Below, in pieces: positions 45,192-60,266 of a DNA stretch of 64,000 nucleotides. Source of the stretch: Desulfomonilia bacterium (lineage in GTDB: Bacteria; Desulfobacterota; Desulfomonilia; UBA1062); assembly GCA_963664325.2 (NCBI GenBank), contig CAXXDQ010000003.1:640001-704000 (forward strand), read 5' to 3'. The notes beneath the pieces were generated by a model. That model was given only the letters and a program-made list of their open reading frames with translations, did no database searches and was not told the origin of the DNA. The position numbers and the translations under genes were made by a program. The number at the start of each line of letters is the position of its first letter. Positions within the stretch are counted from its first letter, which is position 1.

Positions 45192-45253
45192 TAATATTCA
45201 ATAAATGGGCAAGCGTGAGTATGAAATTTCAAGATAACATGAGGAGGTTTCTT

Positions 45254-46249
45254 ATGAAAAAGGGATTACTATTTATTATTAGTTTATTTCTGCTAATTTT
45301 GAGCGGGTGCATTCTATCTAAAACACCCAACACGAATAATGTTACTATGAAAGTTGGAGAGCAGAAGACATTCAGTGTGAATGTGTTTCCACCCGGAAGT
45401 TCATATGAATGGACCTTGGATGGGTCGCCAGTTTTGGCCCCAGGTAACTCGTATACTTATACAGCTCTAGCAAGAGGGCACAGCTTGGTAGTGAGGGTCA
45501 CACATCTTTTGGGCATGAATAAGCAGGCATGGTATATCTCACAGGAAGACCCAATCACCGAATTATTGAACTCCCTTTTGTACATCCCAGCTGGCACGTT
45601 CATGATGGGGAGCACAGACTACTGGTCGACAATACCGATTCATCAAGTTACGCTCTCGGAATTTTATATGAGTGCCTATGAGGTGACTCAAGTACAATAT
45701 CAGGCAGTCATGGGTACGAACCCTTCATATTTCCAAGCGAAATATGGTTACCCAGGGAGATATAACTACCCAGTGGATTGGCTTACTTGGTATGATGCTA
45801 GTGCTTTCTGCACACAACTCTCTGCGATGACGGGGCGCACATTTACACTTCCGAGTGAAGCTCAGTGGGAATACGCCTGCAGATCTGGAACTACAACTCC
45901 ATTCAGCTTTGGTAGCGATGATGAACAACTCGATAACTATGCTTGGTACGGAGAAAACTTAGATACTGGAACCACTCATCCCGTAGGCGAAAAGCTGCCG
46001 AACGCTTGGGGGTTATATGATATGATGGGTAATGTCTGGGAGTGGTGTCTGGATTCTTGGCATGAAAATTATGTGGGTGCACCCACAGATGGTAGTGCTT
46101 GGGAACCTGATATAGGTACCTACCGCTTAACTCGTGGCGGTAGTTTTTTAAGTGAAGATTCATGGAACATGTGGTCTTCAAGTCGTAATTATTGTAACCC
46201 ATCTTGTAAAAATAATAACTTTGGTTTTCGTATCATCGAAATTCCATAG
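45254..46249 (+). CDS. lipoprotein: Ig-like + FGE-sulfatase (CLec-fold) domain
   Basis: Lipobox LSGC; GTFMMGS, LPSEAQWEYACR, PNAWGLYDMMGNVWEW and RGGS...GFR. Confidence 0.85.
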   Translation: MKKGLLFIISLFLLILSGCILSKTPNTNNVTMKVGEQKTFSVNVFPPGSSYEWTLDGSPVLAPGNSYTYTALARGHSLVVRVTHLLGMNKQAWYISQEDPITELLNSLLYIPAGTFMMGSTDYWSTIPIHQVTLSEFYMSAYEVTQVQYQAVMGTNPSYFQAKYGYPGRYNYPVDWLTWYDASAFCTQLSAMTGRTFTLPSEAQWEYACRSGTTTPFSFGSDDEQLDNYAWYGENLDTGTTHPVGEKLPNAWGLYDMMGNVWEWCLDSWHENYVGAPTDGSAWEPDIGTYRLTRGGSFLSEDSWNMWSSSRNYCNPSCKNNNFGFRIIEIP

Positions 46250-46421
46250 GGTTAAGGAAAGGTTTTGATGGATGGCACAAGGCGTAAATTCCATGTAATC
46301 TATTTACTCATATAAGGCATTATGTTCAAAAAATTATAAAACTGACTTATTGCTTCACCTGATACAGCATACCAGAACATTCATCTATGAAAACAGGAAT
46401 TAAAAAGTTGAGGAGGGTACA

Positions 46422-48137
46422 ATGAAAATCAGAAAGCATCTTATCATCATATTGGTGATCGGGCTATTCATGACTGCTTGCGGACCCAAGGTTGTCTCGA
46501 CTGATCCTTGCAAAACATGTGAGAGCCCCTGGTACACTACAGTGAATGCGACCTTCAATCAGAACATCAACCCCGCCACTGTCAACTCCACCACATTTAA
46601 GGTTGAAAAAGATGGCAGTCCTGTTCCCGGGACAATAATGGTCAGCGGCAAGACTGTGACCTTTATGCCAACCAGTTATTTCGATGTCCCTCATCCATAT
46701 ACCGTCACACTGACAAAGGGGATCAAGAACACATCGGGCTTTGCTATGCAGAAAGATTATTCATGGCCTTTCACGACTGAGCATGGATGGAAAAACCCTA
46801 AGAACATCGATGACAACATAAGTCCCAATGGAACTGGAGCTTACCTTTTGGGACATATTGAAGGATCCGAGAGCATTGTTACGAATGAAAAAAATGATGC
46901 CATTATTACATGGAGACAAGAAGGTGGAGGATCATACGATCAGATTTTCAAGAGCGAATATCACAATGGTATTTGGACCCATCCTTCTGGCCTCTCAGAC
47001 ACGGTCAGCCCTGATGGCACCAAAGCTAGTGAGCCTCGTGTTGGCTTGGACAATGAAGGCAATGCAATAATTGTTTGGCGCCAATATGTTGGACAACCAG
47101 ATGCAAGTTCTTATCATATGTTTAAAAGGGAGCGTCATGACGGTGTTTGGGAACCTAAACCGTCATTAACAGATTATTTTGATCCAGGCATTTCTAGCGG
47201 AAATAGTTCTTTTGTCATGAGTAGCGGAGGTGATGCAGTTTTCTCCTATGGTGAAAATCTAAATGCTCCTTCTGGTCGTAGCAGATTGTTTGCGAGTGAG
47301 TATCGGGATGGAGTATGGAATCATCTTGGACCTGATGACTATATTAACCCAGATGGCCCGGATTGGACCGAAAATGGAAATATAGCAATTAATGCAAATG
47401 GTGATACGATAATAACTTGGTATCAACCGGATGCAAGTGGCATATACCAGACCTTCAAGAGTGAATACAGGAATGGTGTCTGGATACGTCCTTTGAACCT
47501 ATCTGACAACATTAGCCCTGATGGTTGGGATGTAAGTTTCCCAATGGTCGCAATAGCAGACAATGATGATGCAATCATCGTGTGGCAGCAATATGATGGG
47601 ATCAGCAATGTCAGGATATTTAAGTATGAATATCGTAGTGGGTCTTGGTCGGGTCCTACATCTATCAGTCCTGTTGGAACATCGGCCGATTTCCCCCATG
47701 TGGCAATGGATGCCAATGGCAATGCAATCATAACATGGACACAGATTGATGAGAGTGGCTATTCCCAGTGCTTCAAAAGCGAATATCGAAATGGTGTCTG
47801 GACACATCCGTCAAGTATTTCCGATCACATCAGCCTCGATGGAACAGAAGTATTTGGTACGAATGTGGCCATGGATTCAAGCGGATCAGCCATCATAACA
47901 TGGTATCAGAAATGTTATAAAGGATATATTCAGGTATTTAAGTGTGAGAAACGAAATGGGTCATGGATATGCCCAACAGGACTCTCAGATCATCTCAGTC
48001 CTGATGGATCAGACACAGTAGCACACTCATATTTTTCTCCAGTTGTTGCAATGGATGGCAAAGGTAATGCGATAATAGCATGGAGTCAGTACGACAGTGA
48101 CCATTTCTATCAGGTTTTCAAGAGCGAGTACCGGTAA
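46422..48137 (+). CDS. lipoprotein: Ig-like (Big_5-type) + beta-propeller repeats
   Basis: Lipobox MTAC; repeats of VAMDxxGNAIIxW..Q.FKSEYRNGxW. Confidence 0.8.
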   Translation: MKIRKHLIIILVIGLFMTACGPKVVSTDPCKTCESPWYTTVNATFNQNINPATVNSTTFKVEKDGSPVPGTIMVSGKTVTFMPTSYFDVPHPYTVTLTKGIKNTSGFAMQKDYSWPFTTEHGWKNPKNIDDNISPNGTGAYLLGHIEGSESIVTNEKNDAIITWRQEGGGSYDQIFKSEYHNGIWTHPSGLSDTVSPDGTKASEPRVGLDNEGNAIIVWRQYVGQPDASSYHMFKRERHDGVWEPKPSLTDYFDPGISSGNSSFVMSSGGDAVFSYGENLNAPSGRSRLFASEYRDGVWNHLGPDDYINPDGPDWTENGNIAINANGDTIITWYQPDASGIYQTFKSEYRNGVWIRPLNLSDNISPDGWDVSFPMVAIADNDDAIIVWQQYDGISNVRIFKYEYRSGSWSGPTSISPVGTSADFPHVAMDANGNAIITWTQIDESGYSQCFKSEYRNGVWTHPSSISDHISLDGTEVFGTNVAMDSSGSAIITWYQKCYKGYIQVFKCEKRNGSWICPTGLSDHLSPDGSDTVAHSYFSPVVAMDGKGNAIIAWSQYDSDHFYQVFKSEYR

Positions 48138-48230
48138 AGCAGGTGGAACGAGATTGGTGAGATAACTGAATCAAGTCCTGATGATTATAGGAACAAAAAA
48201 ATAAAATTTTAAAATCAATTGGAGGGTACA

Positions 48231-49289
48231 ATGAAAAGATCATTATTATTACTTACCTTACTTTTTGTCTCACTTATATTGGGCGGCTGCATCATGTCTT
48301 CAACACCATCTTCGCCTGTGTCAGTTTCTGCAGGTGATTCGATAACATTCAAGGTCACAGTGTTTCCTGTGAATATAACTGTGCAGTGGTACGTCGATAC
48401 AAATCTGGTTTCGGGTACTACAGAAAAGTCTTTCATCTATTCTCCCGAAGAAGGTGATGTTGGCACTCACACCATAACCATAAAGGAGACCTCGGGATGC
48501 ATTTTCCTTGGTCAGCATTCTTGGGAAGTTGAGGTCATTTCTAGCATAAAGGATATCACGCAGTTCACTATTCTCGGCATAAATGGCACGATAGGGACTA
48601 ATACGATAGCCCTAACAGTACCCTATGGGACAAGCCTTACATCTTTAACACCTACGATAACTCATACAGGAGCGAGCATAAACCCAGCATCCGGAGTAGC
48701 GCAGAACTTTACAAATCCTGTACAATACACAGTTACAGCTGAAGATGGATCAATGAAGAATTATATGGTTACCGTAAGTGTTGCCCCAAATAAATCTTAT
48801 ACATTTACTGCTACTTGGACCAATAGGCCTTATAGTACAGCTACAGAAGAAGGTACTAGAGGAAATGAAGGAGATGGTGATGATTCTACTTATTGGGGAA
48901 GTTATGTATATACTAATATTGATGGGGATTTTCATAATGAGAACACTGCCCATTTAACTTATACTTATAGTACTCCTCAAATAGTTACATCTGTTCGTTT
49001 TAAGATGATTCAATATGCGTATAGTACTGGCAATAATTATGAATGGAATACATTATCGTCTTCTTTATGTTTATATGATTGGTCTGATAATTTAGTAGCT
49101 ACATTATATAGTTTTAGTAAAACAACACCCCGTGCAAATTATACAAATGATACGGGAGATTTAACTTATAATACTGGTTGGGCTAATATTAAAAGAGTAG
49201 AATTAAATATGTTTGGTGTAGCTCATGGGGATGATGGTGGAGGATCTCGTCATAGGCTTTATGAGTTAACTGTTAATACTGCTGATTGA
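48231..49289 (+). CDS. lipoprotein: Ig-like + DUF5018-like + jelly-roll-like C-terminal domain
   Basis: Lipobox LGGC; KDITQF...VPYGT..LTPTI..NFTNPVQYTVTAEDGS; beta-rich tail. Confidence 0.7.
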   Translation: MKRSLLLLTLLFVSLILGGCIMSSTPSSPVSVSAGDSITFKVTVFPVNITVQWYVDTNLVSGTTEKSFIYSPEEGDVGTHTITIKETSGCIFLGQHSWEVEVISSIKDITQFTILGINGTIGTNTIALTVPYGTSLTSLTPTITHTGASINPASGVAQNFTNPVQYTVTAEDGSMKNYMVTVSVAPNKSYTFTATWTNRPYSTATEEGTRGNEGDGDDSTYWGSYVYTNIDGDFHNENTAHLTYTYSTPQIVTSVRFKMIQYAYSTGNNYEWNTLSSSLCLYDWSDNLVATLYSFSKTTPRANYTNDTGDLTYNTGWANIKRVELNMFGVAHGDDGGGSRHRLYELTVNTAD

Positions 49290-49301
49290 TAGGAGGATCC
49301 A

Positions 49302-50315
49302 ATGAAGAGATCATTATCAATTCTTATTGTGCTTATTTTCATGTCTTTACTGAGCGGGTGCATATTATCCAAAACACCTAAAACAGATACCATTGATATA
49401 CAATTGGGCAAGCAGGTAACTTTCAGTGTGAATGTTTTTCCATCCAATGCTACCTATACCTGGACATTGGATGGTACGCCCCTAATGTATGTATTTGGGA
49501 AATCGTATGTGTACACTTCTACTGGGGGTAATCACAAACTTGTGGTTAAGGCGAAACAATCTTTGGGTACAGATACCCAGACATGGAATATCACCTGTGA
49601 TCCAATTGTCGGTTTATTGAACAGCCTGGTCAGTATCTCAGGTGGCACATTCATGATGGGGAGCACAGATAATGAATATTCATGGGCGAAATACACCACA
49701 CCGGTTCACGAGGTGACAGTTCCGAGTTTTGAGATCGGCGCCTATGAGATTACTCAGGCGCAATATACAGCGATCATGGGTATTAATCCTTCTTATTACC
49801 AAGAGGGACATGGCTACTCTGGCACCGAGAACTACCCGGTGGAAAATCTTACCTGGTATGAAGCAAGAGAGTTTTGCACAGCTCTCTCGGTACAGACAGG
49901 ACGGACCTTCGACTTGCCAAGTGAAGCGCAGTGGGAATATGCCTGTCGAGCAGGAACTACTACACTCTACAGCTTCGGTGATGCTGATGAACTTCTAGCC
50001 ACCTATGGCTGGTACTATGCAAACAGCAATGATGCAACCCATCCCGTAGGCACGAAACTGCCGAACCCCTGGGGCTTGTATGATATGCATGGCAACGTGT
50101 GGGAGTGGGCTCTGGATTCATGGCACTTTAACTATGATGGAGCACCAACAGATGGCAGCGCATGGGATCCTGATACTGGCCCTTACCGCATGATTCGCGG
50201 TGGCAGCTTTTTCTCCGACCATGCGGGGAGCTGCCGGTCGGCGGCTCGTGGTGTCCTCTACCCCCCCAGCTACGCGAACCGGGGTCTAGGCTTCCGCATC
50301 GTCGAAATTCCATAG
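49302..50315 (+). CDS. lipoprotein: Ig-like + FGE-sulfatase (CLec-fold) domain, paralog of 45254..46249
   Basis: Lipobox LSGC-ILSKTP; LPSEAQWEYACRAG, PNPWGLYDMHGNVWEW and RGGS..GFRIVEIP. Confidence 0.87.
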   Translation: MKRSLSILIVLIFMSLLSGCILSKTPKTDTIDIQLGKQVTFSVNVFPSNATYTWTLDGTPLMYVFGKSYVYTSTGGNHKLVVKAKQSLGTDTQTWNITCDPIVGLLNSLVSISGGTFMMGSTDNEYSWAKYTTPVHEVTVPSFEIGAYEITQAQYTAIMGINPSYYQEGHGYSGTENYPVENLTWYEAREFCTALSVQTGRTFDLPSEAQWEYACRAGTTTLYSFGDADELLATYGWYYANSNDATHPVGTKLPNPWGLYDMHGNVWEWALDSWHFNYDGAPTDGSAWDPDTGPYRMIRGGSFFSDHAGSCRSAARGVLYPPSYANRGLGFRIVEIP

Positions 50316-50334
50316 GGCGGCTAGGGCATAGTTT

Positions 50335-50373
50335 AAGAGATGGTACAGACTGTATGTCCTGTGCCATCTTTTT
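50335..50373 (+). terminator. probable terminator of the lipoprotein cluster
   Basis: AAGAGATGGTACAG...CTGTGCCATCTTTTT. Confidence 0.6.
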
Positions 50374-50409
50374 GCTCTTAGTAATACAAGTTTAGATAGT
50401 TTCATGTAG

Positions 50410-50514
50410 AGATATCTGCGATAGATAATAGCTTTTTTGAGTTCGTAAAAGCTATGATATCCGAATGAGTTCTAATAAATCCCAAAGCTTCATCTTGGAA
50501 TGAATTTCCTCAAG
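50410..50514. repeat. decayed island repeat family, copy 1
   Basis: Begins AGATATCTGCGATA; aligns without gaps to 58199-58303 at roughly 70% by hand count. Confidence 0.7.
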
Positions 50515-50756
50515 CAGCCAACAGCCTCTGTGCAGATGTAATTCATGTAATAAACTTAAAAATTTGCCCATTGTATTATACTGATTACATTGAATTAAAT
50601 TTAAGTTTATTAGGAGATATATGCACTTTCCTAATGAACAATTATTTGATGATGACGGCCATTATATACAGTCCGTAAATGATCATCATTACTGTGTATC
50701 TCTTTTGGAGATCATAAGATTTTCGGCCTTTAAAAATTGAATGTTTTCTCAGGAGA

Positions 50757-50813
50757 TGATAACGTAAGGATCACCAGCGGCTGAAAGCCGACTGGTGCAT
50801 CCTTTTATTCGAC
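50757..50813 (-). other. attC site (degenerate R'')
   Basis: Minus strand GTCGAAT-aaaaggatgcacca..gctttcagc..tggtgatcctt-ac-GTTATCA; imperfect hairpin, closely similar to 54372-54425. Confidence 0.7.
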
Positions 50814-50894
50814 ATTGTTCTCACCATTGAACTTGTTGAGTGGCTCAGATACACCATTAAGCACTTCTTGGTAAGCTAACTTCTTCCATGTTCA

Positions 50895-52061
50895 TCATCT
50901 TCTTAGGAGTCGTTTGAACTGTTTCTGGCTCAAAGGTAAAAAAGGAACAACCGATACATTAGGTCCGCACGAAACTGCAATGGACTTCGAGATCCCCGCT
51001 CCGATTCTCGCTTTCTCGGCAGCAATCACTTTGATAGCACGTGCCCCTTCTATAACATCACCACCAGCTAATATTATGGATTCGATAATCTGTGCTCCTC
51101 GTCTAATATATACACCGTCACCGATGATGGCACATTTCACTTTAACGTCCTCTTCGATCGTTACCCCATCTCCAATCAAACATGGAGGTACGAGCCTAGC
51201 GCTGTTCGCTATCTTGGCATTCCGGCCAATATGCACCTTGTTTATTTCTGGCCCTAACAATGTTGAAAAATTGCCCTTGAGAGCATTCAATTGGGCGGCG
51301 TGATAAATGCCTAAGGTGCCAATGTCTATACGGTAACCCAAGCCAATGTCAAACGCCATGCAAGTTCTGCTCGAAACGAGTCTAGGAAACAAGTTACTGG
51401 CAAAATCGATGAATCCTTCCCTAGGGATTTCAAATAGGGCCTCCCGGCTCATAATGTATACAGCTGCGTTCGCTAAGGGATTCATGTAATCGGGAATCTT
51501 TTCCAAGAGCGCCTTCTCAGTAAACATTGTTATACGTCCTTGCTGGTTCACTTCCATTACGCCGTAATTCGTGCGGGTACCACGTGGGGGATACACAGGA
51601 TCTCTATCGTGATAATCGTACAGGAATGCTGAAAAATCGGGCTGGTGGGATAGAATCGTCAAGTCAGCTGCCATAGCTTTGTGGTTTTCCATCATAGCTG
51701 AAAAGTTCGCTGATAGAAGACTGTCGCCATAGACAATCATTACAGGATCAGAAAGGGAGTCTCTGATACGAGTGGCGACATCATATGAGCACCCAGCCGT
51801 GCCGCGCCATGGAAAGTCTTCTATATACCTTATACGCAAACCCCACGCACTCCCATCTTTATATCGTGATTTCACTTCATCATGCCGTCCTGACGAAGTG
51901 AAAACAACATCCTCAATGCCTTGGGAGCTTAGTTCCTTAAGCAAGTAGTCGAATAGTGGTCGCCCGAGGAATGGAACCATACATTTGACTATGTTCTCTG
52001 AAAGTGGCAGCATTCGGCTCGCTGTCCCTCCATTTAATAAGATTACTGTGATATCCTTCAT
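50895..52061 (-). CDS. NDP-sugar synthase-like nucleotidyltransferase with left-handed beta-helix tail
   Basis: VILLNGGTASRMLPL..K..VPFLGRP, GTAG, VYGD, YGV, FTEK and DIGT; hexapeptide repeats. Confidence 0.85.
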   Translation of the reverse strand: MKDITVILLNGGTASRMLPLSENIVKCMVPFLGRPLFDYLLKELSSQGIEDVVFTSSGRHDEVKSRYKDGSAWGLRIRYIEDFPWRGTAGCSYDVATRIRDSLSDPVMIVYGDSLLSANFSAMMENHKAMAADLTILSHQPDFSAFLYDYHDRDPVYPPRGTRTNYGVMEVNQQGRITMFTEKALLEKIPDYMNPLANAAVYIMSREALFEIPREGFIDFASNLFPRLVSSRTCMAFDIGLGYRIDIGTLGIYHAAQLNALKGNFSTLLGPEINKVHIGRNAKIANSARLVPPCLIGDGVTIEEDVKVKCAIIGDGVYIRRGAQIIESIILAGGDVIEGARAIKVIAAEKARIGAGISKSIAVSCGPNVSVVPFLPLSQKQFKRLLRR

Positions 52062-52074
52062 TATAGATATTTCT

Positions 52075-54327
52075 TCAAACCCAGAAAGGCTCATCGGGAG
52101 TACCTTTTGTTGCCCACTCTTCAGCTAGGCGATAAGAAGAAAACTTCCTAAAAACCTCGAACAAGGCGTTCATATACAGATTCTGATGAAAATGCCTAGT
52201 GCAGTAACCACAAGCTTCTCTATCCACTGGCAATGGCCGCCTTTGAAATGCCTTATGATCCTCGCCAAACCAGATATTCTCCAACTCATTACCAGCTTTT
52301 GGGTCAACAGCAGTTCCGGCTGAATGTCGAAGGGATCCCATTTTGTATCTCTCCCTCAACTTCGATTCGCAGAAATTGTCGTCGAATAAAAAGCAGCATG
52401 GATAAACATCTCCATTGGCAGTGATTTTACACGTTAACCTGAGAGCCATACACGTGTAATCAGCCCGCCTGAGATCATGTAGCCGTTTGTTTACGGGTTC
52501 GCCTTTAGCCAAGCCTGAATAGTCGAAAATATTGTTATTTATCATCGTCTCCAAATATTTGAAATCAAAGCGGCTATTCAGACCTTGCAACGATACTCCT
52601 TCTCTTATCACTTTTCTCAACTCCATCTCGTTACACAGAAAACTTCGCCCCTGTTGATCAGGGCCATGTGCTATTTTGAATCTGACACTGTATTCTTTGG
52701 CGGTGAGCCATTCTGCTATGGCGAGAAAGTTCTCCTTGCCATTCAACAATTCTTTCACATTGTCTTTTTGAATTGTGTAGCACACTTCAACATTCTTAAA
52801 CTTGGCTTTTTCAAAAGACATGATCGTTGCTTTCACATAGTCTAACGAACCATTTTTCCTTATATCCCTGTAGATATCATCCGTGAAGGCATCAAGTGAT
52901 AATTGGACCCAGCTGCACGAGTTGGCAATTCCTTCTGCTTCCGCGATATTGATGCCACGGACTTCGCCATTTTTTTCCGGGTCCTGACGTATGCCATTAG
53001 TCAGCAGACCTATTTTTAAATCACATTGTTTTTTAGCGTAACGAAGAATATGCAAGATATCTGGCCTGGCAAGCGGCTCACCTCCGGATATTATCAATGC
53101 TCTTGTTTGCAGTTTCTTAATGCTATCCAGAATCCTTTCTATTTCCACCGTCTCTAACTCTTCGTCTGGATTATAGAGTGCATGGTGATTGCACATCTTA
53201 CAAGTGGTTGTACATCTATTGGTGACCAAGAATTGAATACAAGCGGGTCTGACTTTTGTTGATTTCCATGGTGGTAAGCCAAATTCAGATACGAATATGT
53301 TGGCCGCATAGGCATTTAGCGCTTCTGCTGTGTTGTTTCTCGTTATTGAGTGGAGGGGATAGTTCTCCAATTTGATTGTAGCGATATCATTCTCTGCCTC
53401 CTGCTTTTTCTTGTCATATTCCTTTATCGGATCGGCCATAAATTTGATCCTTGTGATATCGTCTCGAAATGGTTTAAAGTGATGGTCAAAACTCCTAGGA
53501 GCCAAGCGGCGTCTCTGAAAAACCAACATGGGTTTTGATAGGCCGCTCTTCGGATCTTCAAAAACGGTTCGAAGGTCCAAATGGAATCTCTCATCACGAT
53601 GATCCAACTTAAGATGGAGCATTCCGTTTCTGATCTGTCCCGGATAAACACTTAATTCTAGTTTTTCCAGGTCATTTGGTTGGTGGCTTTTCTTTTTACC
53701 TTCTTGCAACATAGTATTCGATTGGTTAATCTCCTCCAAGAATGTACGACGTATCTCCTTAAAATTACCAATCGCTTCTTCAATCTGGATGCTGAGCTTC
53801 TTGACCGCCTTAATGGCTTCTTCGTTTTCACTCTCGCCACCTTTCAACGGATTCAGGTCCAATACCGGCTCATATGGGTTTTGAATTACAAAATGAAGGC
53901 AACTCCCATGACGCAGTGCCGCTAGGATTTTATTGGACAGATCTCGCCGGCCAATTTCATACGATTCCATGTCGTGGTTGAAATAGAATTCATTCCCACA
54001 GAGCCAAGAAAAACAAGAACGACCTACAATCGTCAATTCGCCTTTACGTGTGGTAATCTCATCCAGTGTTTGCATTGGCCCGTAGCGAATCGGTACGCTG
54101 CTACGGTTTGGGTAGTACTTGACGGTCGGAGTTATGAAGTCTTCAGCATTGGCAACCAATATAACAACCAGCGATACTATAACAGTTAGAATTAAACTTG
54201 TGCCAATTAGTAACCAACCTCTTAACGGTGTAGTTATGCCAATTATAGTTATGATAAGAGTAAATAAGGTTAAAACACTTGGTGGAATTAACCACATTGA
54301 CTTTATGTATTTCTTCATATTTTGCAT
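52075..54327 (-). CDS. 2TM + alpha/beta (PLD/DUF5919-like) domain + radical SAM + SPASM-type fusion
   Basis: Two N-terminal TM helices; CTTTCKMC, SGGEPL, LLTNG and QLSLD; C..L...ITANGDVYPCC...CGYC. GAAGGAG RBS. Confidence 0.8.
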   Translation of the reverse strand: MQNMKKYIKSMWLIPPSVLTLFTLIITIIGITTPLRGWLLIGTSLILTVIVSLVVILVANAEDFITPTVKYYPNRSSVPIRYGPMQTLDEITTRKGELTIVGRSCFSWLCGNEFYFNHDMESYEIGRRDLSNKILAALRHGSCLHFVIQNPYEPVLDLNPLKGGESENEEAIKAVKKLSIQIEEAIGNFKEIRRTFLEEINQSNTMLQEGKKKSHQPNDLEKLELSVYPGQIRNGMLHLKLDHRDERFHLDLRTVFEDPKSGLSKPMLVFQRRRLAPRSFDHHFKPFRDDITRIKFMADPIKEYDKKKQEAENDIATIKLENYPLHSITRNNTAEALNAYAANIFVSEFGLPPWKSTKVRPACIQFLVTNRCTTTCKMCNHHALYNPDEELETVEIERILDSIKKLQTRALIISGGEPLARPDILHILRYAKKQCDLKIGLLTNGIRQDPEKNGEVRGINIAEAEGIANSCSWVQLSLDAFTDDIYRDIRKNGSLDYVKATIMSFEKAKFKNVEVCYTIQKDNVKELLNGKENFLAIAEWLTAKEYSVRFKIAHGPDQQGRSFLCNEMELRKVIREGVSLQGLNSRFDFKYLETMINNNIFDYSGLAKGEPVNKRLHDLRRADYTCMALRLTCKITANGDVYPCCFLFDDNFCESKLRERYKMGSLRHSAGTAVDPKAGNELENIWFGEDHKAFQRRPLPVDREACGYCTRHFHQNLYMNALFEVFRKFSSYRLAEEWATKGTPDEPFWV

Positions 54328-54371
54328 GTGATCTCTCCTTCACATGGGATAGCTCTCTTTTTGCACTTTCC

Positions 54372-54425
54372 GTCCATCAGGCATCACCGGCGGCTGAAAG
54401 CCTCCGGTGCATCCTTTTGTTATAC
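54372..54425 (-). other. attC site (degenerate R')
   Basis: Minus strand GTATAAC-aaaaggatgcaccgg..gctttcagc..ccggtgatgcct-GATGGAC. The upstream gene's TAA stop lies inside R''. Confidence 0.75.
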
Positions 54426-55103
54426 ATCTTTTACTGGTGGTTTTCCAATTCTCGATAGCTTCAAGTTCAAAGATTTCTTACGTTCATCAAGCCTTTTAGG
54501 CTGGACAAAAACAAAATCAAACAAAGAATCTAAGACTTCAAGAAGCCACTCTGCTTCACCGTTTTCAACATCTACAATTTCACCAGTGGAGACATCTTTT
54601 TCCGGATGAGCTGCAAAATTACCGATGGTTCTAATTGCGTCAATCGCTTCAGCTAAGTAAGATGGAGTTGTTTTGTTTTTCAAGAAGTCATCAATTTCTT
54701 TAGCGAGACTTGATTTCTTTATTTTTATTTCCTCCCTCAAAATACATTGCAAGAGTCTCCGACTTATAGCAGCACTTGCTTTTGGGCTTAGATTTAGTAC
54801 AGCAACAGCCTCTAAAAAATCATTCTTATAAATTTCTGGTACTTCTGGTTGGACAGGACGAATAGCCATTTTGGGGTAAAGAATTTCCTCGGAAGACACT
54901 GATGTTAGACTTTCACCGTATTTATCTTTTTTATATTCTCCTTCTTCTAAGATTACAATAAGCTCCTCGCATAATGGACAAAAACCATGGGTTACAGCAA
55001 AGCCACTACCTTTCGGTTCTTCCTCTTTATTTAAAGAATGGTACACAGCGCTATCAGGACTTTCAAAATGGATCCCCTTACCACAATGCGGACAAATATT
55101 CAT
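54420..55103 (-). CDS. DUF4145 (HEPN-like) protein with N-terminal Zn ribbon; gene cassette
   Basis: CPHC...CPLC; EA..L.LSPKASAAISRRLLQ; IRTIGNFAAH. Confidence 0.8.
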   Translation of the reverse strand: MNICPHCGKGIHFESPDSAVYHSLNKEEEPKGSGFAVTHGFCPLCEELIVILEEGEYKKDKYGESLTSVSSEEILYPKMAIRPVQPEVPEIYKNDFLEAVAVLNLSPKASAAISRRLLQCILREEIKIKKSSLAKEIDDFLKNKTTPSYLAEAIDAIRTIGNFAAHPEKDVSTGEIVDVENGEAEWLLEVLDSLFDFVFVQPKRLDERKKSLNLKLSRIGKPPVKDV

Positions 55104-55115
55104 TATTCATCTCCT

Positions 55116-55179
55116 GCATAACGCTGCGGCTCTGCAGCCGCGGCGCGCTTTCGCGGTCTGCAGCAGCCGCTTGTTAGCT
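55116..55179 (-). other. attC site
   Basis: Minus strand AGCTAAC-aagcggctgctgcagaccgcg...cgcggctgcagagccgcagc-GTTATGC, 64 bp, followed by AGGAG and the next ATG. Confidence 0.92.
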
Positions 55180-55196
55180 GATACTCGATAAAAACC

Positions 55197-55796
55197 CTAT
55201 TTCCAGGGTTCCATGGCTCTTTCTTCAAAAGTTTTTAAAAGCCTCGGCCCGACATTAATGGCCCATTTGGCTGAACGTTTATCTACTTGTGCCCCATGAG
55301 CTGCTTGGTTCAATAGGCCAATCATATCTGTAAGAATTGAATATTCTTCTTTACTTATAAGCTGCTTATTCAATACCTCAAGCAAAATGCCTCCAATTCC
55401 TCTGGCTCGAATCTCATGACCGCGAGAAATTGCTAAGGTGTTAAGTTTCTTCTCAAGCTCTATTCTCAATCCAGCAAGTGCAAGATTAGGATCTTGATCT
55501 GCAACTAACATAAATGAATATTCAGGGTCTTTCCCTTCCTTTTCGTTTACTGGTGAGAGTAAGCCTATCGCATCGGCTTTATCAGAGGTTTTTTGAAGAT
55601 CTTGAAATTCAACCTTCCAACCACCTGGAAATTCTAAGGTTTTAAAGAGCGGCGCAAGCCAAGGGATTATTGCTGCTACAAGCAGTACAATTGTTACATA
55701 ATCGATCCCAAGCTTGGGCCAAACAAGATGGATAAGCGCAAGCAAGAGAGCTGAAATTGTTACAATCTGTTTGAGTTTCTTATTATTCATTCTCAT
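55197..55796 (-). CDS. 2TM membrane protein with HEPN-like C-terminal domain; gene cassette
   Basis: Two TM helices; LALAGLRIELEKKL and LLNQAAHG; bounded by attC sites. Confidence 0.65.
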   Translation of the reverse strand: MRMNNKKLKQIVTISALLLALIHLVWPKLGIDYVTIVLLVAAIIPWLAPLFKTLEFPGGWKVEFQDLQKTSDKADAIGLLSPVNEKEGKDPEYSFMLVADQDPNLALAGLRIELEKKLNTLAISRGHEIRARGIGGILLEVLNKQLISKEEYSILTDMIGLLNQAAHGAQVDKRSAKWAINVGPRLLKTFEERAMEPWK

Positions 55797-55806
55797 TTAC
55801 CTGGAC

Positions 55807-55930
55807 AGCTAACGCTTGGCATCAGCGGCGGTTTACGTTTGCTACGTAGTAGCAACGTGGCATTTTGTTTGCTCTTTTTCTGCAAACAAAATGCCACGAG
55901 TAAGCCGTCCGTTGCATGCCGTTGTTAGCC
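55807..55930 (-). other. attC site (long, 124 bp)
   Basis: Minus strand GGCTAAC-aacggcatgcaacggacggc...ccgccgctgatgccaagc-GTTAGCT, with an internal CGTGGCATTTTGTTTGC/GCAAACAAAATGCCACG stem. Confidence 0.92.
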
Positions 55931-55933
55931 TCT

Positions 55934-57843
55934 CTAGTATTTGCGGAGATATTTCATATCACGTATAGCATCTTTTAAGAACTCTGCGAAATCATCTCTC
56001 TGAATCAGAGCGCGTCGCACCTTCGAGCCGGTTATAGGCACAATTAAAGGGCTCGACGCATTTCCTGCTTGATTGCGGAGTGTGCGTATTGCATCTTCCG
56101 TGAAACCGCTTCCAGACACGAAGAACGCCAATTGAATGCCGCGGACTTGTGCAACCTTGTGGGCAAAGCTCCCAACTTCCTCCAGCGGAACGTCGGTGTT
56201 CCAGTTCTTACATTCCACCAATACTTCACCTCCGTAATCAGCCCAAAACGGTTCACTTTTCTTCATCTCTAGTACAAGGTCTATTTCGCCGTTTTCCGTA
56301 TTGTAATCACGCCTGACAATTGAGAAACACTGACCGAAGAACCTAGAAGAAAACTCCTCAAACAGCCTGCCTTTGTCATGTGATGCCAGCCCCGCATCGC
56401 CAGTGCGTTCAAGGAGGGCGAGAAGGTCGTCGTAGACGTCGACGGGCTCACGATCACTTAGGCTTCTATTCGCGGAGTCGATCAGTTGTGAGACGAAACC
56501 TTCGCCAACTTCGTGGATGAAGCTAGAGATCACATATTGAGTAAGGCGCCTATTTCGTGTTCTTCCGTGCGAGGACACATTTTGCCGCTAGCAGTATTTG
56601 GCGCTTCTCCACAGCAGCCTCAATGATAGGCCCGACGTCTGGAAGGAGACCGCATGCCATGACTACGAACATTATGGAGATCGAAGCGATCGACCATGCC
56701 GACGACTCTAGCCGGTTCGCTGCTGACAGCACGGGCGGAGTAGTACTCAAGGAACGTAAGGTGTATGAAGCAAACCTGGTTTGGGGAAATCTCAAGGAGA
56801 ATCCCTGTGGTAAGCAACTCGTCAAGGAATTGCTCGTCAGCATCTCTACGTTCCCCGTGAGCCTCAAGGAAATCGCCGAGCATGCCTCTAATTTCCGCCC
56901 GCGAGGCAGAGTTCTGAGCCCGCACAATCAGAAGTTCATAGCCTATCTGTTCCAGTGCGCTTTGCTTCGCGCGTAAGGAAATGCTTACTCTGGATACGCC
57001 CTTTGCTCGTTCCCATGTGGAGAGGAGAAAGTCTGTACAATCGGCATAAAGGGAGGTCAGATTATCCGGCAACATCCCTCTTGATCGAAACACCTGCCAT
57101 AGGAGGTGTAAGAGCAGCGGGTTAGAGGCGAGGGCATATAGGGTAAGGTGAGATTGGATTGCCTGGAGAAACCTATCGGCATATTCCGGCTGTTCCGCGG
57201 ACAGTCTACGTGACAACGCTCGGATGGATCCGATATCAAAGGGTTCAAGGTGGAAATAGACGAAGCCACGAATTGGCGAGGAAAGCCCGGAAGGACGCGA
57301 GGAAGCAAGCACTTTCAAGTCTGGATGGGCATGTCCAAGAGAACCCAACTCATTCACGAAGTGGTAGCGACGGGCTGAGTCAACTTCGTCGATCCCATCA
57401 ATAACTATGACAAAGCGATTGTCGCGGAGAAGAGAGCGCACCTGATCTGCTTGGTCGTCCTTTCCGATGCGCTGACAGACAATCTGGCCAAGCCGGTCCA
57501 CTAAAGTGTCCCCGCTCGCAAGTGAAGCAACATCAGGGGCACGAAAGAAGAGAGGACACGGTGCGAACTTCGTATCTTTCAAAAAGGCTTGTGCGAGAGT
57601 CACCGCGTAGAATTTTAGGAGGGTGGTCTTCCCAGCTCCCGGAGGACCCAGGATTGTCAGTCTCATGTGTTTGTCAATCGTCTGCCGTGAACCAAATAGC
57701 TCGCCGGTGGCATCTGCAACCTGTGGCTCGACAAAGAGCTTGTCGATATCTTGGCGAGTCGGACCTGCAACCGGCACTAGGTAGTCCAGGTACCCCAAGT
57801 CATGCAAAGCGAATTCGGCGATTCTTTTGAGTAATGACTTCAT
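55934..57843 (-). CDS. NACHT NTPase fused to a C-terminal Mrr-like PD-(D/E)xK restriction endonuclease (two +1 frameshifts); gene cassette
   Basis: GPPGAGKTT, VIDGIDEV, SSRP, NPLLL and FIHLTFLEYY; KGRLFEE..GEIDL..VECKNW..SGFT. The frames join on removing single bases near 56668 and 56573. Confidence 0.8.
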
Positions 57844-57856
57844 GTAATTCCCGAAA

Positions 57857-57875
57857 GGCTAACAATTAATATACG
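57857..57875 (-). other. attI-like first junction of the cassette array
   Basis: Minus strand CGTATAT-TAATT-GTTAGCC. The R box is the exact complement of the GGCTAAC opening this cassette's attC; no attC hairpin lies upstream. Confidence 0.6.
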
Positions 57876-58198
57876 TAATATATGTTTATGCTGTTTTCAA
57901 ACAGCCCCCTTGGGTTAATGGTTAAATATTTACAATAACGTTCTAATTAAATCAAATATTTATAATTTAATGATTATGTATTTAGTACGTATTACCATTA
58001 AAAGCGTAATACGTATTATCAGTGGTATTTGGTTTATTCTTAGATTGGGCCTGCATAGTAAGCCCAACAAATCAATGTTGGATTTCACGTCTAATAACAT
58101 TCAACTCAAACTGCATATATGCCCGCAAGACCATTACTGTCCAGCGATTATGCAAAAATATACAGTGCTACAATACATCAATGCTCCTGCCAGACTAT

Positions 58199-58303
58199 AG
58201 ATATCTGCGATAAATGAGTGCTCTTCTGAACTCGAAAAAGTTATAATATCCAAATGATATAGAATGAATCTCCCGCACTCTTCTTGGGATGAAGATCCTC
58301 AAG
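58199..58303. repeat. decayed island repeat family, copy 2
   Basis: AGATATCTGCGATA...TCCTCAAG, colinear with 50410-50514. Confidence 0.7.
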
Positions 58304-58494
58304 AGATCTATCATTTTTGAGATAGGAAAAACTATAATTTGCATGCCAGGATCGCAACTTTAATATCTGCATTTGATAGTATAGGTTTCTTCAGAAGATT
58401 AAAACAACAGCCATCAGGGGCATAGGTGGCAGCCCTCGTCAGTCTGCGTGCTATTGCTTGGTACCATTGTTCCCAATAATCATAACCCTCTTTA

Positions 58495-59724
58495 TTAGAA
58501 ACGAAGGGGAACAGATGAATCTTCTACTTCCACGAAGTCGTATGCATATTTCAAAAGCAACGAAACAACGGCAATTCTACCAAAATCTTTATTTGCAGTA
58601 GGTCCTTGGACAATCTTTTTTATTGGTAGAAGAGTACATTTGTTAACTACAGGAAATCTGAGTTCAGTATATGGGACAATTGAAGCATCCGAAGTACGAA
58701 ATTTCAATGCTTCTAAGTCATTACTTAAACCACTTGTTAACACACATCTCCATTCTTTCTCTTCATAAAAGCTTGGATGTTTGAAAGTGTATAGAAACTC
58801 TTCGATAATTATACCTGCAACATGACCAATGTATGCAATAATATTATTCTCCTCTTCTGCTGGACGGCCTATTGCATTCTTCTCAATACATTCATTTATC
58901 TGAGAGATAATATCATCGATAATTTTAAGTTGTATTTCAGGGTCATATATCACTCTCCTCAGGAAGAACCCAGGGTCCGTTATGGAAAGTTCATTTATTA
59001 TAGTTGAATCAAACCCTATGCAAAAACCAACCGAGCCTCCTGTATAGCCACGCCATTGGCTTAGTAAATCACCATTTTCACAAAAGCATAATAAAAATCT
59101 ATAATTACTTGGCCGGGTCTTGAAGACTTCTTTGCATCGTTCCCAAAACACTCTATGTTTAGCAGATTTTTCCCTACTCGAAATTTCTTTCTCTATTCGA
59201 TTAAAGATCAGTTCACGTGCATACTCAAGTTCTGAAGAATCATTTAAAAAGCGGAAGTCAGTTGCCCAAAGGTTCCCCTCTTTAAGAATCCCGATTAGAC
59301 CAGGAATTTTCGTATAGTGAAATAACAATGGCGGTCGCTGTCGCTGGTATTGTGACCAGTACTTATACAAGTTCGTGTTAAGCTCGGTTAAAAAAGATGT
59401 ATATGGTCCAATATCAACAAAGGAATGCTTACGACCGAAAAATACATCCGGATTTGCTGGTGATTTTAGTAAACGAGTATACAACTCAGGATACTTTGCT
59501 GGCTTAGTAAGATTATTCAACCAACCACAATTATTACAAATTCCGGCAGCGTTCGATAAATTAGGAAGATATTGCCCTTCAATAAGACTACTGTGACAAT
59601 ATCCACAAACGAAGCTGCCTGTCCCTTCTGTTTTTATCAAAACAGTCTTGTCAGAATTTAACTTTAATTTACCCATGTACTCACCACAACTGTCCGACAC
59701 TAGTGTTAACGGAATATTTTTCAT
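58495..59724 (-). CDS. DUF2971-like protein with N-terminal Zn ribbon
   Basis: CGYC..CNNC; LFHYT...ILK..LWATD..FLNDSSE, CF.E.GDLLSQWRGY, GFCIGFD and KHPSFYEEKEWR. Confidence 0.8.
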   Translation of the reverse strand: MKNIPLTLVSDSCGEYMGKLKLNSDKTVLIKTEGTGSFVCGYCHSSLIEGQYLPNLSNAAGICNNCGWLNNLTKPAKYPELYTRLLKSPANPDVFFGRKHSFVDIGPYTSFLTELNTNLYKYWSQYQRQRPPLLFHYTKIPGLIGILKEGNLWATDFRFLNDSSELEYARELIFNRIEKEISSREKSAKHRVFWERCKEVFKTRPSNYRFLLCFCENGDLLSQWRGYTGGSVGFCIGFDSTIINELSITDPGFFLRRVIYDPEIQLKIIDDIISQINECIEKNAIGRPAEEENNIIAYIGHVAGIIIEEFLYTFKHPSFYEEKEWRCVLTSGLSNDLEALKFRTSDASIVPYTELRFPVVNKCTLLPIKKIVQGPTANKDFGRIAVVSLLLKYAYDFVEVEDSSVPLRF

Positions 59725-60266
59725 TTGTACTCCCTTATACTTAACTAATAATTATATTACATATAATGCCTTATAGATTACCTTCCGGGGGAAAGGTCAC
59801 ATTCAAGAAACTTATTACTCCGACGATTATCTTATATCGCAGATTGTTAATTCTATTTCATTGTCTAATTTGTAATCCAAACAACTTGACTTTCAGTATG
59901 GTGAAATTATTATATCTATGTATAATTATTCAGCACACATTTTCACAGTGCTATTTGAAATGCCGAAGTAGTATCTATTGATTGATTTTCATGTAGTTCT
60001 CCATACACCAAAACACATCTTGAGTCAGAGAATTAAGACCAAAATTAAGGAATAGAAATCAGCATTCGAGTAGTTCTCCGTACCGTTGAGGAAGACTACT
60101 AAGAATCAACAAAAGAGGAAACAATTATGGCCAGAATTCATAAAAACATAGATAATAAGGCCTTTTTCAATAAGGTTTATGATTATCTAAAAAATATTTG
60201 CTCAAGTAATTTAACAGTCAAAGAACAAATCAATAAGTTCAAAGTAAGTTATTGATAGGAGGTTAT

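Follow-up and report, generated by a model that had tools for sequence, protein, structure and literature searches.

What kind of protein is encoded by a radical SAM gene that lies between attC-like hairpins, beside a nucleotidyltransferase gene and among defence-like neighbours, and what might it do for its host? The gene pair in question lies in a 64,000-nucleotide stretch of DNA from a Desulfomonilia bacterium (the window), and the initial annotation regarded it as a fixed two-gene system that makes a modified nucleotide or NDP-sugar as an antiviral compound or signal.

Domain architecture of the radical SAM fusion

Both genes are encoded on the minus strand and are tightly linked, as originally described, with the radical SAM (rSAM) fusion gene at 52075..54327 (750 aa) and the nucleotidyltransferase (NTase) gene at 50895..52094 (399 aa). 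The sequence from 50300 to 54400 shows 0 differences from an independent contig obtained from a run of the same sample, and the fusion gene is present in a single copy in the 4.3-Mb genome. The AlphaFold model of the 750-aa protein (pLDDT 91, pTM 0.87) contains a two-helix membrane anchor, a phospholipase D (PLD)-like domain, a radical SAM core and a SPASM-type domain. The two transmembrane (TM) helices noted from the sequence are found as an N-terminal hairpin at residues ~8-58 (54154..54306, minus strand), corresponding to two Kyte-Doolittle hydrophobic segments (residues 8-26 and 40-58) and to two helices in the model (16-32 and 38-64).

The extra domain of ~280 aa that had been likened to PLD and DUF5919 folds spans residues 66-350 (~285 aa; 53278..54132, minus strand), and the first half of that comparison is borne out by structure prediction. 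The domain is modelled with a pLDDT of 91, and Foldseek returns 35 PDB matches at E<=1e-3, nearly all of them to the PLD superfamily (TrmBL2/TrmB, FAM83 DUF1669, vaccinia F13, PssA, PLD, Zucchini and Nuc); a viral library search also supports the PLD fold. The DUF5919 half is not upheld, as the domain alone matches nothing in Pfam, PF19319 (DUF5919) included, at a threshold as lax as E<=10, and PF19319 has no match at E<=0.01 in the whole genome or in control genomes. A lead to DUF5919, an Atlas cluster that carries it in 15% of members, has a score of only 0.77.

The catalytic HxK(x)4D motif of PLD enzymes is not kept in the PLD-like domain of 51 family members. With the HKD strand placed by spacing and secondary structure rather than by residue-level superposition, the motif position is occupied by N234 (N in 37, S in 4 and H in 3 of the 51), followed by S235 and by M236 (M in 32, R in 8 and K in 1). 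The domain is catalytically inactive, with HKD replaced, and its conserved residues are R103, T104, W108, Q149, N234, S235, P266 and R330. The best Foldseek matches are to non-catalytic ligand or DNA binders, namely the C-terminal domain of TrmB/TrmBL2 and FAM83 DUF1669 (E 7e-6 to 3e-4), which also lack the HKD residues, and in one relative (P0044) a helix-turn-helix (HTH) precedes the PLD-like domain, as in TrmB. However, a long helical insertion keeps the TM-scores of these matches down to 0.3-0.5, and at the sequence level the domain matches neither DUF5919 nor another Pfam family. Since the HKD residues are absent and the best matches are non-catalytic binders, the domain may be a ligand-binding module of the TrmB kind. 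TrmB itself is described as sugar-sensing (PMC10667668).

The radical SAM core occupies residues ~361-552 (52672..53247, minus strand) and carries C372-x3-C376-x2-C379 and SGGEPL, with Pfam Radical_SAM (PF04055) matching residues 368-519 at 71.1 bits (cut-off 29.5). The three cysteines are retained in 50-51 of the 51 members, and S414, G415, G416, E417 and P418 in 96-100%. Further downstream is a SPASM/twitch-type auxiliary Fe-S domain at residues 626-709 (52201..52452, minus strand; PF13186, 29.6 bits, cut-off 21.5), in which 50-51 of 51 members keep C626-x12-G639-x4-C644, C645 and C706-x2-C709; for C471 and C516 the counts are 48 and 44 of the 51, respectively. Compared with the SPASM motif CX9-15GX4C...CX2CX5CX3C...C, the first block is present and the second is reduced to C706-x2-C709. 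Judged from the conservation of the CxxxCxxC motif, the GGE motif and the auxiliary-cluster cysteines, rSAM chemistry is likely to be active in the family. In addition, the core is lined by polar and basic residues that are invariant or nearly so (R490, R549, K551, H554, R658, R711, H712, D650 and N651), and it probably has one specific substrate, presumably anionic.

The top Foldseek E-values for the rSAM part belong to the peptide-modifying SPASM enzymes CteB, anSME, SuiB and SkfB, with viperin, BlsE and DesII structures also among the neighbours. The best PDB profile match is MoaA (53 bits), with SkfB and PqqE also near the top, and the lipid rSAM enzymes GDGT-MAS/Tes are found among sequence neighbours. 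With MoaA, BlsE and DesII, which act on nucleotides or nucleotide-sugars, the fusion shares profile or fold and a CX12GX4C auxiliary-cluster motif, and an NTase partner that would make an NDP-sugar is in line with such enzymes. In contrast to them, the fusion keeps the 7-Cys SPASM motif only in part, has no biosynthetic cluster around its gene, and scores far under the cut-offs of the equivalog models.

A comparison with prokaryotic viperins (pVips) is also instructive. Like them, the fusion is a radical SAM enzyme found among defence genes, and some pVips are accompanied by a substrate-supplying kinase, to judge from PADLOC model names, paralleling the optional NTase described below. However, the PADLOC pVip match is weak (44 bits, partial, in the rSAM core), and viperins have no SPASM domain, PLD-like domain or 2-TM hairpin of the type seen here. 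Assignment of the fusion as a prokaryotic viperin was rejected, as the NCBIfam model viperin_w_prok (NF038283) reaches 38.2 bits where 180 are needed and covers only residues 364-494. To our knowledge, an antiviral mechanism has been demonstrated for no radical SAM enzyme other than viperin.

No named system with this layout had been recognised initially, and none emerges from the searches. Apart from the pVip match, the 750-aa protein has only a weak match to NsnC in PADLOC-DB 2.0.0, the NTase has no match there, and the two proteins are never both matched to models of one named system. All NCBIfam matches of the two proteins, equivalog models included, are far below their cut-offs, the best for the fusion being the mycofactocin maturase MftC (77.8 bits, cut-off 265). 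The fusion thus matches no named anti-phage system in PADLOC-DB 2.0.0, and its membrane anchor, HKD-less PLD-like domain and rSAM/SPASM portion constitute an unannotated domain architecture that includes a new domain absent from Pfam.

The accessory nucleotidyltransferase and the cassette-like array

The NTase is a sugar-1-phosphate nucleotidyltransferase with a left-handed beta-helix domain, matching NTP_transferase (PF00483, 93.5 bits, cut-off 21.2) and Hexapep in Pfam, with 8x7s (UGPase) and 7x8j (GMPP) as its best PDB matches. Translation probably starts at 52061 (M12), a position that coincides with the start of the homologue P0075; the two genes would then be separated by a 13-nt gap, as opposed to the 20-nt overlap created by a start at M1. 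The domain order and catalytic residues are those of GDP-mannose pyrophosphorylase-type enzymes (ManC/GMPP and CugP-type UGPase), yet the best NCBIfam match, the mannose-1-phosphate guanylyltransferase model man1P_GTase_Rv (NF052502), reaches 149.5 bits against an equivalog cut-off of 440. The protein also differs from these enzymes by an insertion of ~20 aa (PDFxAFLYxYHD...RTNYGVM) and by its loop, which reads GGxA(S/T)R where they have GGxGTR. The loop sequence LNGGTASR had been correctly read and taken as an altered signature; it proves to be a trait of a subclade that retains every catalytic residue (G22, G23, R27, K37, D124, E193, K194, D257 and G259 are invariant), and not a sign of new activity. 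This subclade consists of 15 relatives at 193-511 bits; the next score is a step lower, at 139 bits.

Other loci do not bear out a fixed two-gene system. The NTase gene adjoins the rSAM gene in 3 of 13 informative loci (2 of 12 when this window is set aside) and is missing from all three of the other genomes that carry a solo fusion gene. The NTase is for these reasons an accessory and not a core partner; the unit is the fusion protein, with the NTase optional. Where the pair does recur (loci L006 and L007), both gene orders are seen and NTase identity across the three paired loci is only 32-41%. This recurrence in both orders, together with the dedicated subclade, its insertion and the intact catalytic residues, makes the NTase look functionally tied to the fusion. 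Accidental co-residence of two functionally unrelated genes, which would account for the absence of the NTase from most loci, is very improbable given the recurrence of so divergent a pair in both orders, the small subclade distinct from ordinary ManC-like enzymes (the step from 193 to 139 bits), and the tight spacing.

The pair had been placed between two attC sites. Related imperfect hairpins do flank it, at 50759..50808 downstream of the NTase gene (DNA fold -16.2 kcal/mol, z -5.7 and -4.8) and at 54379..54415 upstream of the rSAM gene, at the end of the adjacent DUF4145 cassette (z -3.0 and -3.8), and they share the 18-nt core CACCRGYGGCTGAAAGCC, found 2 times in the window versus 0.14 expected. 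However, both hairpins are degenerate, with one recognisable R box apiece. Two canonical-looking attC-like sites, much better than the hairpins flanking the pair, were located by a pattern and fold scan at 55116..55179 (64 nt, ..TAAC ... GTTA..) and 55807..55930 (124 nt; DNA fold -40.5 kcal/mol, z -7.8). No integron integrase was found in the genome (95.6% complete), the best match to TIGR02249 being 84 bits versus a cut-off of 265, and no excision joint of the cassette was seen in the reads.

The neighbouring cassettes, described initially as NACHT and HEPN, hold a DUF4145/PD-T7-4-like gene at 54420..55103 (minus strand; Pfam DUF4145 3.9e-16, PADLOC PD-T7-4 9.1e-16) and, at 55934..57843 (minus strand), ORFs for a NACHT NTPase (PF05729) and a Mrr_cat nuclease-like protein by Pfam, which become one ORF of ~635 aa if two 1-nt differences of the run's contig are applied. 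PDC-S31-like and trypsin-like neighbours are also present in the window. As had been noted, no sugar-pathway gene is nearby: no such gene, glycosyltransferase or polysaccharide gene was found in the cassette or among the Pfam-scanned window neighbours, a scan that excludes the ORFs at 45188-49289. The array resembles a CALIN in its short one- or two-gene units on a single strand, with imperfect palindromes between them that end in ..TAAC/GTTA.., and in its defence-like content and absence of an integrase, but only two of its four attC-like sites look canonical. Integron cassettes are reported to carry phage defence genes (10.1101/2024.07.02.601719).

Distribution of the family and its N-terminal variants

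The fusion family comprises ~65 cluster representatives among 1.84 billion and is present in 3 of 185,579 species genomes, from three different lineages; searches of viral contigs, phage records and plasmid records found no member. The family is very rare, patchy and horizontally mobile. At most loci the fusion gene stands alone among unrelated neighbours, and a Pfam scan of 30 neighbouring proteins outside the window found a heterogeneous and mostly housekeeping assortment. An association with defence islands was unseen outside the window, with 1 weak PADLOC match among 17 neighbour proteins, and a comparison of 14 loci found no conserved small ORF beside the gene. At one locus (L009), tandem attC-like repeats lie upstream of the fusion gene. 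At two others there is a hint of envelope-glycan genes: in L006 a gene for a PMT_2-type membrane glycosyltransferase (26.3 bits, cut-off 26.1) comes after the NTase-rSAM pair, so that one homologous pair partly matches the LPS/capsule setting that had been named as contrary to a defence role, and in L010 the fusion gene adjoins a HisF/HisH/PP-loop trio, a combination typical of surface-glycan clusters.

The PLD-like domain and the rSAM/SPASM portion form the constant part of the family, and the N-terminus varies. The TM anchor is found in 41 of 51 full-length members, with the other 10 carrying TIR (three solid cases), TIR-like, sub-threshold EAD8, HTH or unknown N-termini; TIR, TIR-like or HTH domains account for 8 of these 10. 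For instance, P0065 and P0071 begin with TIR_2, P0070 with a TIR of the CAP12/Pycsar family (6e-28) and P0044 with HTH_3, related TIR-like N-termini are seen in P0062, P0063, P0067 and P0069, and the EAD8 match of P0064 is below the Pfam cut-off (21.4 versus 27 bits). Stand-alone proteins made of 2TM and PLD-like domains with a Cys-rich tail also exist (P0042, P0043, P0052, P0054 and P0056). A 2-TM or TIR N-terminus that is exchanged on a constant C-terminal module recalls the TM and TIR effectors of CBASS and Pycsar, but here the constant module is an enzyme plus a PLD-like domain rather than a cyclic-nucleotide receptor, and no cyclase is present.

Possible roles of the fusion protein

The role that we tentatively favour, at somewhat short of an even chance, is that of a conflict or defence enzyme, directed against phages or mobile elements and acting on a nucleotide or NDP-sugar. 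This reading is suggested by the swapping of N-terminal TIR and HTH domains, by the rarity and patchiness of the family, and by the cassette-like setting here and in L009; the lack of space for a precursor peptide in the cassette was also counted in its favour. The substrate of the rSAM domain would be a common phosphorylated small molecule, with an NDP-sugar or nucleotide as the likeliest candidate, a class suggested by the presence of MoaA, BlsE, DesII and viperin among structural and profile neighbours. The modified product may be an antiviral metabolite or carry a signal within the cell. A co-transcribed NTase, present only in some cassettes like the nucleotide kinase of some prokaryotic viperins, would be an accessory for local supply of the NDP-sugar. 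The antiviral role proposed initially is in keeping with the TIR-bearing relatives and out of keeping with the lack of defence enrichment at other loci. Also counted against a defence role were the heterogeneity of those loci, the glycan hints at L006 and L010, and the absence from viral, phage and plasmid records, as were the peptide-modifying top Foldseek matches, the sub-threshold EAD8 match, the degenerate flanking sites and the missing integrase.

A rather unlikely alternative is an envelope pathway, in which the anchored rSAM enzyme would modify either a lipid head group or the NDP-sugar product of the NTase for a surface glycan or lipid, with any phage effect arising indirectly from receptor change. 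Such a role would suit the prevalent TM anchor, a sugar-1-phosphate nucleotidyltransferase as partner and the neighbours at L006 and L010; moreover, the PLD fold is common to two binders of lipid head groups, phosphatidylserine synthase and PLD, the GDGT-MAS/Tes enzymes are sequence neighbours, and DesII and BlsE are able to act on nucleotide-sugars. However, TIR, TIR-like and HTH N-termini are a misfit with a biosynthetic enzyme, and the missing HKD residues, the solitary occurrence of the gene at most loci, the lack of glycosyltransferase or polysaccharide genes in the cassette and among scanned window neighbours, and the occurrence in so few species genomes argue in the same direction.

It is also possible, though unlikely, that, by analogy with the CBASS and Pycsar effectors, the PLD-like domain and rSAM core act as a sensing or signal-making input, with the N-terminus (TM pore, TIR NADase or HTH) as an exchangeable output that would kill the cell or reprogramme transcription. 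The constant C-terminal core with its variable N-terminus is arranged as in one-component and effector proteins, and the CAP12/Pycsar-type TIR of P0070, the stand-alone 2TM and PLD-like proteins, and the use of TrmB-like PLD-fold domains as ligand sensors joined to HTH are consistent with this arrangement. The argument is one from domain architecture, the TM hairpin may be a mere anchor, and we know of no precedent for immune sensing or signal synthesis by a radical SAM enzyme.

More doubtful is a role as a protein or peptide maturase, whereby the SPASM rSAM enzyme would cross-link or modify a host or phage protein, or a Cys-rich tail of its own or on a separate protein, with the PLD-like domain in place of an RRE. 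The best Foldseek E-values, the MftC match, the SkfB and PqqE profiles and the Cys-rich tails of the stand-alone proteins all point that way. On the other hand, the cassette has no space for a precursor ORF (92 nt upstream and 88 nt downstream), no small ORF is kept beside the gene, a Pfam scan of the fusion found no RRE/PqqD domain, the CX2CX5CX3C motif is reduced to CX2C, and the dedicated NTase partner at three loci would be left unexplained.

The most far-reaching reading, itself unlikely, is a single-polypeptide immune module of a new kind, in which the rSAM/SPASM enzyme and a dead, ligand-binding PLD-fold domain form a constant core for sensing or signal making that drives swappable outputs (a 2-TM disruptor, TIR NADase or HTH), with the NTase, where present, feeding in an NDP-sugar. 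No radical-SAM-based sensor or signal generator would have preceded such a module in prokaryotic immunity, and it would join viperin as a second case of radical SAM chemistry put to antiviral use. As a compact unit of one or two genes, the fusion is directly testable. Should it prove to be a defence module, bacterial immunity would gain a new chemistry, one that may operate on NDP-sugars; if it is instead an envelope enzyme, it would show that integron-like cassettes move metabolic pairs. Under either reading, the picture of a fixed two-gene system is corrected.

A radical SAM fusion gene and its optional nucleotidyltransferase

The two genes that the initial annotation singled out as a candidate system were recovered by ORF calling where it had placed them, both on the minus strand. 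The gene at 52075-54327 encodes a 750-aa fusion protein, in which a two-helix membrane anchor and an N-terminal domain precede a radical SAM (rSAM)/SPASM core, and the gene at 50895-52094 encodes a 399-aa sugar-1-phosphate nucleotidyltransferase (NTase). Pfam assigns Radical_SAM to residues 368-519 of the fusion protein (71 bits) and SPASM to residues 626-709 (29.6 bits), and finds NTP_transferase (93.5 bits) with hexapeptide repeats in the NTase; for residues 1-350 of the fusion protein Pfam has no match up to E<=10. The fusion gene is single-copy in the 4.3-Mb, 9-contig genome, and a contig from a run of the same sample, spanning 50300-57911, shows zero differences inside both genes. The likeliest start codon of the NTase is M12 (52061), 13 nt past the rSAM stop codon, and its closest homologue, P0075, begins at the equivalent position. 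Initiation at M1 would instead create a 20-nt overlap with the rSAM gene, and the two genes are tightly coupled under either start.

The NTase is a ManC/GMPP-like enzyme with an LbH domain. Among its 467 relatives at E<=1e-3, 15 (P0075-P0089) stand apart at 193-511 bits and 34-61% identity, as against at most 139 bits for ordinary enzymes of this type, and this subclade is marked by an insertion of about 20 aa and by a GGxA(S/T)R loop that replaces GGxGTR. The altered signature remarked on earlier is thus present as a trait of the subclade, and R27, K37, D124, E193, K194 and D257 are invariant across it, so that the enzyme is apparently active.

Whether the two genes form a fixed unit can be judged from 14 other loci of the fusion family (L001-L012, L014 and L020), with L013 left out as a duplicate on the same contig as L003. 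Five further loci (L015-L019) were excluded from every count, as they hold an unrelated 438-aa rSAM protein in a long operon, with 26% identity to the core only. By tblastn, the NTase lies directly downstream of the fusion gene in L006 and directly upstream in L007, where it is cut by the contig end, with no match in the rest of the 14-locus set; nor is any other neighbour gene common to any two of the 14 loci. Twelve of the 14 are informative, with a flank of 400 nt or more to one side, such that the NTase is adjacent in 2 of 12 loci, or 3 of 13 counting the window. The subclade NTase is also absent from three species genomes with a solo fusion gene, where the best scores are 105, 67 and 64 bits, the reference score in the window genome being 532 bits. 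Thus, the genes do occur as a pair in the window, L006 and L007, but the proposed two-gene system is not fixed, and the NTase is an accessory. That it recurs in either gene order, at 32-41% identity, is an argument for a functional link wherever the two genes occur together.

A constant core behind a swappable N-terminus

The fusion family is small. Among 5.8 billion proteins, a word-indexed search found 14 full-length relatives at 31-56% identity, and a profile of the N-terminal 350 residues, run against 1.84 billion cluster representatives, returned 65 proteins at E<=1e-3 and 58 at E<=1e-10. Fifty-seven of these were aligned, and the 51 longer than 600 aa are the set for family counts. One or two N-terminal hydrophobic segments are found in 41 of the 51, and none in the other 10. 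Pfam identifies TIR_2 at the N-terminus of the non-TM members P0065 and P0071, a CAP12/Pycsar TIR in P0070 (6e-28), a weak TIR_2 in P0069, HTH_3 in P0044, and a below-threshold EAD8 in P0064 (21.4 versus 27 bits), a domain counted among effector-recruiting domains (PMC7159879). The N-termini of P0062, P0063 and P0067 and the 470-aa N-terminus of P0015 have no Pfam match, and those of P0062, P0063, P0067 and P0069 are mutually related by BLAST. What stays constant in the family is the N-domain with rSAM/SPASM, and the extreme N-terminus can be exchanged. There are also five short proteins (P0042, P0043, P0052, P0054 and P0056), which consist of the two TM helices, the N-domain and a Cys-rich tail, without rSAM; L020 is not a stand-alone N-domain of this kind, being a member broken off just past CxxxCxxC. 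The tail of the short proteins is conserved as C-x2-C-x3-C...K, and could bind metal or be the substrate of a separately encoded rSAM enzyme.

In the case of the N-domain, the earlier guess of a PLD-like fold is borne out by structure prediction. AlphaFold2 models of the whole protein (57-row alignment; pLDDT 91, pTM 0.87) and of residues 66-350 alone (pLDDT 91) were obtained, and Foldseek returned 35 PDB matches to the N-domain at E<=1e-3, nearly all in the PLD superfamily, including TrmBL2, the TrmB sugar-binding domain, FAM83 DUF1669, vaccinia F13, phosphatidylserine synthase, bacterial PLDs, Zucchini, Nuc and polyphosphate kinase. A viral structure library again gave PLD-type proteins. The TM-scores are modest (0.3-0.5), owing to a 43-residue helix and C-terminal helices. 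Residues R103, T104, W108, Q149, N234, S235, P266 and R330 are conserved across the family, and N-S-M occupies the strand assigned to HxK, an assignment by spacing and secondary structure and not by residue-level superposition; of the 51 members, 3 have a His there and 1 a Lys. On this evidence the N-domain looks non-catalytic, and in this it would resemble TrmB and FAM83, non-catalytic proteins of PLD fold. The assignment to DUF5919 is unsupported by sequence. The best ESM Atlas score for the N-domain was 0.78, under the meaningful level, and one Atlas cluster with DUF5919 in 15% of its members, at 0.77, is no more than a lead. Complex prediction with two copies of residues 66-350 scored 0.28 against a mark of 0.42, which speaks neither for nor against a homodimer.

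In the rSAM part, CxxxCxxC, SGGEPL and many polar or basic residues are kept in 86-100% of the 51 members (W473, Q475, S477, D479, R490, N523, E526, R549, K551, H554, D650, N651, R658, R711, H712 and N716). Auxiliary cysteines are conserved as C626-x12-G639-x4-C644, C645 and C706-x2-C709, together with C471 and C516, and a complete CX2CX5CX3C block was not found in the 51-member alignment. Among the best 25 of 47 NCBIfam matches every equivalog score is far under its cut-off, the top match being MftC (78 bits versus 265); the viperin model gives 38 bits against a cut-off of 180. The closest solved proteins are MoaA, SkfB, GDGT-MAS, PqqE, BlsE and viperin by profile, and CteB, anSME, SuiB, SkfB, MoaA, BlsE, DesII and viperin by fold, and these neighbours do not fix the substrate. 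The invariant basic residues, a cassette that holds no precursor ORF and the kind of partner that is optionally present lead us to infer a single small-molecule substrate, probably phosphate-bearing. Identity as an anSME, suggested by the fold neighbour and by two FGE-sulfatase-domain lipoproteins nearby, was dropped, as the lipoprotein genes are on the opposite strand, beyond the attC-bounded unit, and the best 25 of the 47 NCBIfam matches include no anSME model.

The cassette array and its surroundings

At about 31 kb GC content falls from about 0.51 to about 0.42, and the low-GC region that extends from there to about 64000, the array included, carries a tyrosine recombinase (32945-34171) and a DUF3987/NrS-1-type primase (34731-37196); as a whole, the right half of the window has the look of an integrated element or genomic island. 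A repeat of about 110 nt, with the invariant core TAGATATCTGCGATA, occurs at 50407-50514, 58196-58303 and 63857-63883 and twice more on another contig of the genome (C5:61259 and C5:73447). It brackets a 7.8-kb cassette block and then the next block of 5.6 kb; the end of a mobile element, an att-like site and an operator are candidate identities. To its left, a series of lipoprotein-like surface proteins with internal repeats is encoded at 40084-50315(+), including a Big_5 protein, a 1158-aa fn3 protein, a repeat protein (46422-48137, +) and two paralogous FGE-sulfatase-domain proteins (45188-46249 and 49302-50315, +), with similar signal-peptide/lipobox-like N-termini (repeat family D9).

The four intergenic elements of the array are imperfect palindromes. 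A strong fold and ..TAAC/GTTA.. ends characterise the 64-nt site at 55116-55179 and the 124-nt site at 55807-55930. The hairpins flanking the gene pair, at about 50759-50808 and 54379-54415, fold well and have a common core found nowhere else in the window. The pair was described as lying between two attC sites; related palindromes do flank it, but each has a single degenerate box only. No integron integrase is present in the genome, and the array is therefore at best an integrase-less attC cluster. Reads and contigs over 50300-58400 contain no joints, and hence no sign of cassette excision, and X5, a run from another study, contributes only four short, 100% identical fragments there, which probably derive from the same strain and give no evidence of mobility. 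Across the whole window, no Rfam match at gathering thresholds was found, and there were no tRNAs. Promoter and terminator scans gave no excess over shuffles. Between the 110-nt repeat and the attC-like site, at 50622-50741(+), is a candidate ORF of 39 codons that has a good ribosome-binding site (taggagatatATG).

The units neighbouring the pair encode a DUF4145/PD-T7-4-like protein, a 199-aa protein, and NACHT plus Mrr_cat, followed past the repeat by a DUF2971/PDC-S31-like and a trypsin-like protein. The 199-aa protein (55197-55796, -) is the product of a single-gene cassette, carries a hydrophobic helix at its N-terminus and is without a match in Pfam, NCBIfam and PADLOC; its ...NQAAHG... 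motif resembles GNFAAH in the adjoining DUF4145 protein. At 55934-57843(-), a contig from X1, a run of the same sample, is one letter short at 56573 and another at 56668, and omission of both letters joins the ORFs of NACHT (407 aa) and of Mrr_cat (214 aa) into one of about 635 aa. Given this single frame, the window assembly may hold two indel errors, or the copy may be broken. The 736-aa protein with a Nal1_C/trypsin-like peptidase domain (60252-62462, +; PADLOC 'trypsin-like', 4e-24) and the 409-aa DUF2971 protein with a weak PDC-S31 match (58495-59724, -) are further candidate defence genes beside the array.

Context at other loci and possible roles

The family is patchily spread over Bacteroidales, Smithella and Treponema MAGs. 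Searches of viral contigs, of phage records and of plasmid records gave no member, and the plasmids yielded only distant rSAM cores such as MftC. Repeats resembling attC occur at only one other locus, L009, a termite-gut-type metagenome contig in which the family gene has two tandem 114-nt palindromes (61-297; GAATAACGG...CCGTTAAGG) immediately upstream, which suggests that this copy is also an integron cassette.

The 30 neighbour proteins from other loci are of mixed content by Pfam, including PilZ, Big_2, SDRs, a hybrid kinase, HisF/HisH/PP-loop, KARI, LeuA, TPR, GGDEF, an M1 peptidase, an epimerase, a transposase, PIN-PhoH and Pfam-less proteins; in L006, a PMT_2 glycosyltransferase follows the NTase. 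The expected association with defence islands did not extend beyond the window, PADLOC giving one weak match in 17 neighbour proteins. Because defence context is weak at these loci, and because two of them have glycosyltransferase or amidotransferase neighbours, an envelope-glycan or lipid role keeps some weight as an unlikely reading. A protein-modifying role, for which the peptide-maturase neighbours of the rSAM part speak, is more doubtful still.

Viperins defend through production of modified nucleotides. An rSAM effector different from the fusion protein occurs in vWA-MoxR systems (PMC7159879), and phage defence can be encoded by integron cassettes (10.1101/2024.07.02.601719). The fusion architecture was not found described in the literature, although supplementary tables, for instance those of the Aravind-group surveys (PMC7159879, PMC8195603), may list the family. 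The swapping of TM helices for TIR-type N-termini, the rarity and patchy spread of the family and the cassette setting in the window lead us to favour, tentatively, a conflict module. A sensor/output device would be a much less likely form of such a module, and in the form that we prefer the fusion protein would be an enzyme that makes a small molecule in the manner of viperin.
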